Under the pieces are notes generated by a model that made no database searches, was not told the DNA's origin, and was given only the letters and a program-made list of their open reading frames with translations. This document shows, piece after piece, positions 9,690 through 13,704 of a stretch of 64,000 bases of DNA. Numbering within the stretch: position 1 is the first letter of the stretch; each line of letters begins with the position of its first letter. Origin of the DNA: Escherichia phage 121Q; sequence record NC_025447.1; one strand, given 5' to 3'. Both the position numbers and the translations under genes were made by a program.

Positions 9690-9854
9690 ATGACGCATGA
9701 AGAATGGATGAATGATATTAATTTTAGATATTCGGGTATCGGTAGTTGGCGAAAATATCATTGGGAAATTATTTCAGACCCAGCAGAATACGATAAACTT
9801 ATAAACCATGAAGTATATCCGTGGTTCTTTATTGAAATAATGGTACGAATATGA
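9690..9854 (+). CDS. small protein, MTHEEW family
   Basis: 54-codon ORF MTHEEWMNDINFRYSGIGSW...; stop overlaps next ATG (ATGA). Confidence 0.45.
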   Translation: MTHEEWMNDINFRYSGIGSWRKYHWEIISDPAEYDKLINHEVYPWFFIEIMVRI

Positions 9855-10011
9855 CGCATGAAGAATGGATGAATGACATTAATTTTAGATATTCGGGTAT
9901 CGGTAAATGGCTAAAGTATCATTGGGAATTCATTTCAGAGCCACATATGTATGATAAACTTATCAACGATCCAGCATATGAAATGTACTTAATTGAACTA
10001 CTGGTACGAAT

Positions 10012-10015
<4 letters not shown>
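9851..10015 (+). CDS. small protein, MTHEEW family
   Basis: 54-codon ORF MTHEEWMNDINFRYSGIGKW...; ATGA overlaps at both ends. Confidence 0.45.
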
Positions 10016-10595
<580 letters not shown>

Positions 10596-10599
<4 letters not shown>

Positions 10600-10627
10600 C
10601 TAAATAATTCAGTACTGAGGATATTAA
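10596..10627 (+). promoter_or_regulatory. sigma70-like promoter variant (TTGACT ... TATTAAT)
   Basis: Same TTGACTAAATAxTTCAGTACTG core as neighbouring promoters. Confidence 0.4.
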
Positions 10628-10656
10628 TATGTTTAAAGATGAACGTCCAGATTTGT

Positions 10657-10694
<38 letters not shown>

Positions 10695-10699
10695 GAATT

Positions 10700-11040
10700 C
10701 CACAATCAGACGTATATGGTGTAAGCTACGTCGATGCAATCCAGAACAAGATCTCTGGTACTCTAGGAAGTGGTGAATGTTAACCTAGACGGGTTTGATA
10801 ATTGGACGATAGGCAATTATTACTTGACTAGCAGGTTGAAACTAGAGGTGACAGTCCTTCACCAAACTGGAAAACCGGATGGACTTTTATTTAAAAGGGT
10901 AAGGCGTGGAAATATGTTTACAGAAGTTGCTTTTAGTAGCCTGTACGCCCCACGACAAGGTAGCCGAAAGGTAAGTTAAAACGGGTGGTTATAAAGCTGA
11001 ATTAACAGCGGCGTTTAAAAGCGTCACCATCCATTTTTTT
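10700..11040 (+). ncRNA. candidate structured non-coding RNA (unclassified)
   Basis: About 340 nt with no ORF, GC-richer than flanks, just downstream of a consensus promoter; GNRA-type hairpins (e.g. CCGAAAGG); ends in a T-run. Confidence 0.25.
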
Positions 11041-11056
11041 AATTAAAGTTGGCGAT

Positions 11057-11809
<753 letters not shown>

Positions 11810-13353: not shown

Positions 13354-13360
13354 AAGAACG

Positions 13361-13393
<33 letters not shown>

Positions 13394-13442
13394 CAGGGGA
13401 GGTTGTAATTCCCGATTCAGTAGCTTTTTAAGCTGTTCCGTG

Positions 13443-13543
<101 letters not shown>

Positions 13544-13562
13544 AGAGGTACTTCGAGTATGC

Positions 13563-13629
<67 letters not shown>

Positions 13630-13704
13630 TAATTGACATAACTTTGAATGGAGTGTATTATGTTCCAAGAAGAAAACTGGGGTTTTTAACATAACGGGGA
13701 ATGT

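Follow-up and report, generated by a model that had tools for sequence, protein, structure and literature searches.

Two predicted structured RNA modules beside the tRNA genes of the jumbo phage 121Q

Results

The segment, its promoter and its coding content

The DNA analysed here, called the window throughout, is a 64,000-nt stretch of Escherichia phage 121Q (NC_025447.1), and our subject is the segment without protein genes that lies beside its tRNA cluster. From the letters alone, an earlier reading (the original prediction) had described positions 10700-11040 as a promoter-driven non-coding segment of about 340 nt. The promoter, the non-coding nature and the structure all stood up to analysis, but comparison with homologous loci argues for two evolutionarily independent structured RNA modules, units A and B, and not for one RNA. 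By BLAST, the region is 99% identical to SP27 and PBECO4 and belongs to an Asteriusvirus-type E. coli jumbo phage. The locus is organised as follows.

10666-10694, + strand: predicted sigma-70-type promoter, TTGACT-17 nt-TG-TATAAT, matching 11 of 12 consensus positions and with a TG extension
10696-10884, + strand: unit A, a predicted 189-nt structured RNA reaching from 5' AAUUCCACAA to the 3' GGAC of pseudoknot 2
10885-10896, + strand: U/A-rich spacer UUUUAUUUAAAA between the units, without a promoter in the window
10897-11040, + strand: unit B, the second predicted structured module, including a terminator (from nhmmer and alignments)

With -35 and -10 hexamers spaced within the 16-18 nt of sigma-70 promoters, the element at 10666-10694 is most probably the consensus early promoter that had been proposed. 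An exact copy of this 29-mer lies at 11425-11453, immediately 5' of tRNA-Ser/Met/Asn (chance expectation 0), and equivalent promoters precede the homologous units in the Asteriusvirus-like metagenomic contig L020 (JACCDR011713278.1) and in Asteriusvirus JNE01. Since no promoter separates them here, units A and B are presumably co-transcribed from this one promoter, ending at the terminator of unit B.

The segment sits in a 457-nt gap (10600-11056) without any + strand ATG open reading frame (ORF) of at least 50 amino acids. The only longer frames in this gap are an ATG ORF of 27 amino acids (10693-10776) and a GTG ORF of 69 amino acids (10770-10979), neither of which is conserved in the homologues. 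A short translated ORF had been named beforehand as the finding that would speak against a non-coding segment; no conserved ORF was detected across the homologues. Many GenBank records carry coding sequences for a 'hypothetical protein' over unit A or unit B, which are probably spurious. At 0.42, the GC content of 10700-11040 exceeds the mean of the window (0.34) and is reached by only 2.4% of 341-nt windows; in this respect the segment resembles the tRNA cluster. The claim of an ORF-free, GC-richer stretch was thus correct, as was that of a terminal T-run, which consists of seven T at 11034-11040.

The folding energy of the single sequence is not significant (z = -1.1 for 10696-10884, z = -1.5 for 10897-11040). 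Thermodynamics fails to separate the segment from chance, but the comparative data do so, and the case for more structure than expected by chance therefore rests on conservation and covariation.

The fold of unit A

An unfitted MAFFT alignment of 14 sequences yielded 30 pairs in RNAalifold, 15 of them with compensatory changes. A covariance model was built from 11 well-aligned sequences and the hand-derived nested structure, and the final test was done on a 19-sequence alignment, fitted to the nested helices, with 50 pairs in 10 helices: H1, H2, H3, the two helices of H4, S1 and S2 of pseudoknot 1, H6, a weak H7 and pseudoknot 2. In this alignment 97.1% of the cells pair, compared to 26-39% when the partners are slid by 1-3 columns. 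Compensatory changes were found in 32 of the 50 pairs, and none of 500 shuffles reached the observed values. The covariation analysis with homologous regions, which had been suggested as a check, is positive for unit A. The predicted elements are:

10705-10735, + strand: H1, AUC-(A)-GACGUA / UACGUC-GAU, with loop YGRYGUR (here UAUGGUGUAAGC); 9 of 9 pairs compensatory, 94% of cells paired
10741-10758, + strand: H2, CCAGA / UCUGG, a hairpin of variable length; 4 of 5 pairs compensatory
10762-10789, + strand: H3, UCUAGG / CCUAGA, with a 16-nt loop containing a conserved AGUG; 6 of 6 pairs compensatory, 99% paired
10797-10821, + strand: H4, GAUAAUUG / CAAUUAUU, with a loop containing GACGAUA; 6 of 8 pairs compensatory
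10822-10845, + strand: pseudoknot 1 (H-type), S1 ACUUG/CAGGU (10822-26 with 10832-36) and S2 CUAG/CUAG (10828-31 with 10842-45)
10847-10863, + strand: H6, GGUGA / UCACC, with the 7-nt loop CAGUCCU; 100% paired, one pair alternating between G-C, A-U and U-A
10854-10884, + strand: pseudoknot 2, GUCC of the H6 loop (10854-57) with the 3'-terminal GGAC (10881-84)
10867-10878, + strand: H7, CUGG-AAAA-CCGG, a weak hairpin inside pseudoknot 2; no compensatory change

H2 is shorter in Proteus phage 1, SdyM006 and the second copy of the contig L022 (ERZ808232), and H7 is broken in the AP1 lineage and was kept as weak only. S1 and S2 are each 100% paired with two compensatory pairs apiece; in S2, U-A to A-U and A-U to G-C exchanges are seen in three lineages. 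Pseudoknot 2 is 98.6% paired and emerged from an all-against-all column scan with the pair types GC9/AU5/GU1/UA1 and UA12/CG6/UG1. A covariance model cannot contain a pseudoknot. S2 was omitted from the model used for aligning and pseudoknot 2 was found only afterwards, and the two are therefore independent checks of the fold. Many pairs, such as columns 112-145 (GU:14) and 148-158 (UG:18), read as G-U on the + strand; since they would be A-C mismatches on the other strand, the + strand is the transcribed one.

Invariant unpaired motifs are CACAA at the 5' end, YGRYGUR in H1, AGUG in H3, CGGG after H3, GACGAUA in H4 (in 19 of 19 sequences) and GAUGG before pseudoknot 2. This suggests tertiary contacts or a binding surface, although inspection by eye and the column scan revealed no covarying tertiary contact for the loops of H1, H3 and H4. 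A search of unit A for Shine-Dalgarno-like, CCA-binding and CsrA-type GGA motifs gave nothing that covaried, and we make no claim in this respect. As judged from the alignments, the defining features of unit A are the two covarying pseudoknots together with several conserved loops.

Other pairings were considered and discarded. In the minimum free energy (MFE) structure of the entire segment, the 5' end is paired with unit B, as would be expected of one 340-nt RNA closed by 5'/3' pairing; this was rejected because it is impossible in phages that have unit A alone. A closing helix P1 (UCCA/UGGA) was only 88% paired and is displaced by the covarying pseudoknot 2 on overlapping bases, and the 5' AAUUCCACAA has no supported pairing partner. 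Helix Y (UAG/CUG around H6), taken instead of S2, was 96.5% paired and is broken in both L022 copies, compared to 100% for S2. S2 and helix Y may be conformational alternatives, as the AP1 lineage has changed all three strands consistently.

Distribution of the two modules

The distribution was determined by BLAST against 50,697 phage records. Unit A is carried by Asteriusvirus, Alcyoneusvirus, Bragavirus (T4-like), Novosibvirus (T5-like), one Stephanstirmvirinae phage, Aeromonas Emmerichvirinae and metagenomic contigs. It is found together with unit B, at ~80% identity, in the Klebsiella Alcyoneusvirus phages RaK2 and K64-1. Alone, at 86-92% identity, it is present in the Bragavirus phages PM2, Pm5461 and SdyM006, in Morganella phage Mm5 and in the Novosibvirus Proteus phage 1; more diverged copies reside in the Stephanstirmvirinae phage KP13-16 and the Aeromonas Emmerichvirinae 65, avDM6, AP1, CC2 and P19. 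The unit A of the window is 92% identical to that of Bragavirus, 86% to that of Novosibvirus and 80% to that of Alcyoneusvirus, and the similarity ends at the borders of the RNA. The covariance model gives 239 bits in the window, where it finds no second copy, and 61-239 bits across 18 homologues. Pattern scans of IMG/VR, metagenome and GTDB genomes added four metagenomic loci; the sole match in GTDB was due to chance and was rejected by the covariance model. Unit A has been exchanged horizontally as a module across at least four phage families of Enterobacterales and Aeromonas. A host origin or mimicry was also considered, but blastn against 5,426 complete E. coli genomes and the PLSDB plasmids gave no match for either unit.

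A promoter of its own precedes unit B in RaK2, K64-1, L021 and JNE01. The one in RaK2 and K64-1 reads TTGAAC-N17-TATAAT and separates A from B, in the stretch equivalent to the spacer of the window, and in JNE01 a promoter is followed by unit B without unit A. Both units are gone from G17 (L028 900-960): what remains is the promoter with the initial 36 nt of unit A, joined to the ribosome-binding site of the downstream ORF, so that the breakpoint of the deletion lies inside H1 and a promoter-proximal remnant is left. For phAPEC6, Sharanji and EC22.5-2, short BLAST matches of this kind hint at the same deletion. Since some Asteriusviruses (G17) have deleted both units and JNE01 lacks unit A, the two appear to be accessory and dispensable for basic growth.

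Some carriers have additional elements. On the minus strand of L022 (2090-2610), an AT-rich contig that has no closer relative in the phage collection, a tRNA-Arg(ACG) has a diverged copy of unit A on either side. L020 has, on its minus strand at ~560-770 and past unit A, a further promoter and an ORF-free segment of ~170 nt that is closed by a 20-bp stem (AUCAAUGGUGAGUAACAUUG / CAAUGUUACUCACCAUUGAU) and looks like a third RNA cassette. In the Aeromonas phages, unit A has a conserved 3' extension of ~85 nt with two more hairpins before tRNA-Thr (L013 1343-1424; L014-L016 1343-1427).

Unit A among tRNA genes

In every tRNA-rich phage, unit A is on the tRNA strand. It fills the gap between tRNA-Gly and tRNA-Asp in PM2 and SdyM006, between tRNA-Leu and tRNA-Ser in Proteus phage 1 and KP13-16, and between tRNA-Pro and tRNA-Thr in the Aeromonas phages; in Mm5 it lies between an ORF and tRNA-Glu. 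In the tRNA-flanked lineages the similarity begins at AAUUCCACAA, 1-3 nt past the upstream tRNA, and ends at GGAUGGNN, 10-15 nt short of the next one. The borders of unit A thus match the ends of tRNAs in PM2, Proteus phage 1, KP13-16, SdyM006, the Aeromonas phages and L022. Where there is no upstream tRNA, as in the window and L020, the promoter sets the predicted start at the same 5' sequence. From these two kinds of start it follows that unit A has the same ends in both settings.

Homing endonuclease genes are present in these islands: segB in T4, an HNH gene in RaK2, a segD-like gene beside unit A in SdyM006 and one in P19. They offer a route for the spread of unit A (PMC2330249). No phage protein gene was found to travel with unit A.

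Unit B and its terminator

The alignment of unit B comprises six sequences with 89% mean column identity. Its predicted elements are:

10903-10956, + strand: B1, a rod-like hairpin with a GGCGUGG/CCACGAC base, UACAG/CUGUA and GUUGC/GUAGC
10963-10972, + strand: GAAA-tetraloop hairpin GCC-GAAA-GGU, invariant but for one G-C to G-U change
10983-11040, + strand: B2, a Y-shaped three-way junction terminator with closing stem GGGUGGU/ACCAUCC (to 11032), followed by A and seven U

B1 has 19 pairs, 96.5% paired and four of them compensatory, as far as can be read from only six sequences; the few substitutions agree just as well with another basal stem, GGCG/CGCC. GNRA-type hairpins had been highlighted in the original prediction. 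The hairpin at 10963-10972 is indeed of this type, but it is a minor feature and not a defining one, and because it is nearly invariant the data say little about it either way.

The two hairpins of B2 are GCUG-AAUUAA-CAGC and GGCG-UUUAAAAG-CGUC. Its seven copies (one each in the window and L020, three in RaK2, two in L021) are 99% paired, and five of 15 pairs are compensatory. B2 combines a stable stem with a U-run, the hallmarks of an intrinsic terminator, and its 7-bp closing stem covaries; it is predicted to be such a terminator. A simple terminator scanner missed it because the 'loop' is a branched insert of 36 nt. In the RaK2-type tRNA region B2 occurs three times: ahead of unit A, closing unit B, and behind a tRNA-Ser. 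This recurrence suggests that B2 behaves as a reusable branched intrinsic terminator.

B1 is common to the Kuravirus phages XT32 and FH3. A kinship between unit A and the Kuravirus RNA was considered, as both have GGACGAUA and AGAUGGA motifs, yet the covariance model found nothing even with filters off. In XT32 (L007 1564-1639), a piece 3' of the B1-like hairpin recurs at 88-95% identity in N4-like phages (N4, Gamaleyavirus and others). Some annotations label it tRNA-Undet, tRNA-OTHER or tRNA-Cys, and it looks like another small RNA-like module moving between phage families.

Other features of the window

In the tRNA operon, the 90-nt spacer between tRNA-Met and tRNA-Asn folds at 11642-11715 as a cloverleaf-like four-way junction (z = -2.9) that neither ARAGORN nor Rfam calls a tRNA. 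A CCGAAAGG hairpin and a CUUG-AAUUAA-CAAG hairpin are found both here and in the 3' portion of unit B. In G17, tRNA-Met and tRNA-Asn are nearly adjacent and such an element is absent. The tRNA-Ser at 11464-11555 has an unusual anticodon, ACT, according to ARAGORN (Rfam tRNA, 49.9 bits); the same call is annotated in G17.

The motif TTCAGTACTG has 18 sites in the window against 0.19 expected, including 10199, 10608, 10678, 11437, 13378/13380 and 13499/13501. It sits in the spacer of repeated early promoters and is possibly an operator or a signature of the promoter class. At 13354-13632, ~280 nt without a + strand ORF of at least 50 amino acids lie 5' of a promoter and tRNA-Thr; with two palindromes ATTCAGTACTGAAT and a T-run at the end, this may be another non-coding RNA or a regulatory region. 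Three tandem paralogous ORFs of 54 amino acids (MTHEEWM...) with successive 4-nt overlaps (ATGA) are found at 9690-10176.

Discussion

The comparative data bear out the structure, strand and boundaries of the two units as well as their modularity, horizontal spread and dispensability. On this basis we consider it probable, at about 0.72, that the segment specifies two small, stable, trans-acting structured RNAs of the phage tRNA island that are expressed like tRNAs. The single early promoter, identical to that of the neighbouring tRNA operon, would give rise to a transcript of ~345 nt that carries A, a compact RNA of five or six hairpins plus the two pseudoknots, and then B. In the phages where tRNA genes flank it, unit A would be transcribed from tRNA promoters and released by the usual tRNA-processing nucleases, with RNase P acting at the downstream tRNA and 3' trimming on the upstream one. 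The 3'-terminal pseudoknot between the H6 loop and the last four bases would then seal the 3' end against exonucleases. Both units would act in trans, unit A probably on something of the host and not on a phage partner. A host target is the more likely because no phage gene travels with unit A, because its carriers share hosts and not ancestry, and because some Asteriusviruses have deleted it. The likely target would be found in tRNA and translation biology or in tRNA- or RNA-directed defence, with the RNA as decoy or binder; given its setting among tRNAs, a role in tRNA/translation biology or as an anti-defence decoy is our best guess, made with low confidence.

Several points weigh against this interpretation. 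Transcription, ends and stability are inferred from sequence for every member, as are processing and the host target, and no complementarity to a particular RNA or protein site of the host, or mimicry of one, could be demonstrated. The MFE fold of unit A disagrees with the fold supported by covariation, and its folding energy is unremarkable, as given above. The 19 sequences represent ~8 independent lineages and many of them are near-identical; since so many are close relatives, the cell counts overstate the number of independent events. Furthermore, the 19-sequence alignment was fitted to most of the helices that were tested with it, and unit B rests on only 6-7 similar sequences.

It is tempting to speculate that unit A founds a new functional class. 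It could be an exchanged anti-defence or translation-hijacking RNA, which binds or decoys a tRNA-directed nuclease of the host or another conserved RNA-handling host factor, or it could be a new ribozyme that acts on tRNAs. We regard this as doubtful.

Alternatively, unit A could be a cis-acting, self-cleaving or otherwise catalytic RNA that matures neighbouring tRNAs, for example by cutting at its own 5' end and thereby freeing the CCA of the upstream tRNA, in the manner of the HDV-like theta ribozymes of gut phages. In at least six lineages unit A indeed lies directly against the CCA end of the tRNA before it, its compact double-pseudoknot fold with invariant junction and loop nucleotides is typical of ribozymes, and theta ribozymes beside phage tRNAs are a precedent (PMC10879173). 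However, the copies in the window and L020 have their own promoter and no upstream tRNA, and such stand-alone copies therefore have nothing to process. In addition, no Rfam ribozyme family matches unit A even at E = 10, the pseudoknots are at the 3' end and not at a 5' cleavage site as in HDV-like ribozymes, and with 189 nt unit A is 2-3x larger than the known small self-cleavers. All this makes a cis-acting ribozyme distinctly unlikely.

Quite improbable, too, is a cis-regulatory leader (riboswitch or attenuator) for the gene of 123 amino acids at 11057-11428, with the Y-shaped terminator being regulated. The order of promoter, structured RNA, terminator and ORF would be that of a leader, G17 fuses the same promoter directly to the homologous ORF, and an ORF also follows unit B in JNE01 and RaK2. 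Elsewhere, however, unit A is followed by tRNAs or another promoter and not by an ORF; the presence of B2 behind tRNA-Ser and behind the unit that precedes unit A in RaK2 argues for a general terminator, and a conserved anti-terminator pairing was not found. For unit B alone a leader function is possible.

A DNA-level element without RNA function, be it a recombination or homing site, an origin or decayed tRNA pseudogenes, is very improbable. The tRNA islands are mosaic and those of T4, RaK2, SdyM006 and P19 do contain homing endonuclease genes, but neither strand-specific G-U pairing nor two covarying pseudoknots are expected of a DNA site or of pseudogenes; moreover, the segment has a dedicated predicted promoter and terminator, and ARAGORN and Rfam detect no tRNA similarity. 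That small proteins drive the conservation is hardly credible, since of the two frames present in the window the 27-amino-acid one starts with an ATG within the -10 box, which is absent where a tRNA precedes unit A, and the 69-amino-acid one straddles two modules that are separate in other phages, while most homologues of unit A have stops in all six frames, their lengths (186-196 nt) differ by numbers that are not multiples of three, and the substitutions in the helices are compensatory.

With unit A, the role of the extra RNAs in phage tRNA clusters becomes directly testable. Phage tRNA islands are increasingly viewed as counter-defence arsenals. In up to 50 years, no function has been assigned to the non-tRNA RNAs within them, the T4 species I/II RNAs, GOLLD and ROOL; among such tRNA-island RNAs unit A is a small member and should be tractable because it has only 189 nt, a well-defined fold and two testable pseudoknots. 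It is carried by culturable phages of E. coli, Klebsiella, Proteus and Aeromonas, some of them T4-like or T5-like, and natural deletion variants (G17, JNE01) exist beside intact relatives. The two units also illustrate a kind of feature that annotation pipelines miss or mis-call as hypothetical proteins.

Relation to known RNA families and systems

No family of Rfam 15 was found in 10696-11046 at gathering thresholds or, with permissive filters, at E up to 10. The families covered include tmRNA, RNase P RNA, group I/II introns, 6S, SRP, Y RNA, GOLLD, ROOL and the small self-cleaving ribozymes, in agreement with the earlier statement that no tmRNA, RNase P or group I intron signature was recognisable. 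Five homologous loci gave no Rfam match at E up to 1. ARAGORN calls six tRNAs in the window but none in 10696-11046, and RF00005 matches only the annotated tRNAs. In the searchable literature no description of the unit A RNA was found; it may sit unnamed in catalogues of candidates such as PMC10690425.

PA5oct, a jumbo phage related to the 121Q/PBECO4/RaK2 group, produces abundant ORF-free ncRNA001/002, which were found by RNA-seq (PMC7318152). They lie outside tRNA islands and have no reported structure, unlike unit A with its place in the tRNA island, and the unit A model does not match them even with filters off.

Theta ribozymes are structured RNAs immediately 3' of phage tRNAs with an HDV-like double pseudoknot (PMC10879173). 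Unit A resembles them in its position directly 3' of phage tRNAs and in its double-pseudoknot architecture. However, theta ribozymes have only ~50-70 nt, carry their 5' end and cleavage site in the pseudoknot and act in cis, whereas unit A is also found as a stand-alone, promoter-driven gene. The nested double pseudoknot with a 5'-terminal P1 and a match to the family model, by which HDV-like and theta ribozymes are recognised, is lacking in unit A, whose pseudoknots occupy the 3'-terminal third (10822-10884).

GOLLD and ROOL are phage or prophage RNAs near tRNA islands with elaborate pseudoknotted folds supported by covariation and no known protein partner (PMC12286853). Unit A, too, is phage-encoded, near a tRNA island and predicted to have a covarying pseudoknotted fold. 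It does not match their family models and, with 186-196 nt, stays below their length of >~500 nt; GOLLD and ROOL are 3-4x larger (~580 to >800 nt) and belong to other hosts (Lactobacillales, rumen, mycobacteria, marine).

In function and genomic setting, the nearest counterparts of unit A are, besides GOLLD and ROOL, the T4 species I/II RNAs (rnaC, rnaD), which are cut from the tRNA precursor transcript (PMC2330249). They are small stable RNAs (119-139 nt) and, like unit A, are encoded inside a phage tRNA cluster and on the tRNA strand. The covariance model finds no match in the T4 locus (L011) and the sequences are without common motifs; unit A lacks the tRNA-like T-arm and acceptor at the end of rnaC and has its two pseudoknots. 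Unit B does not match rnaC or rnaD either. By analogy, the T4 species and unit A would follow the same genomic logic and the same presumed biogenesis. We classify unit A as a new family within the old unsolved category of extra RNAs in phage tRNA islands.

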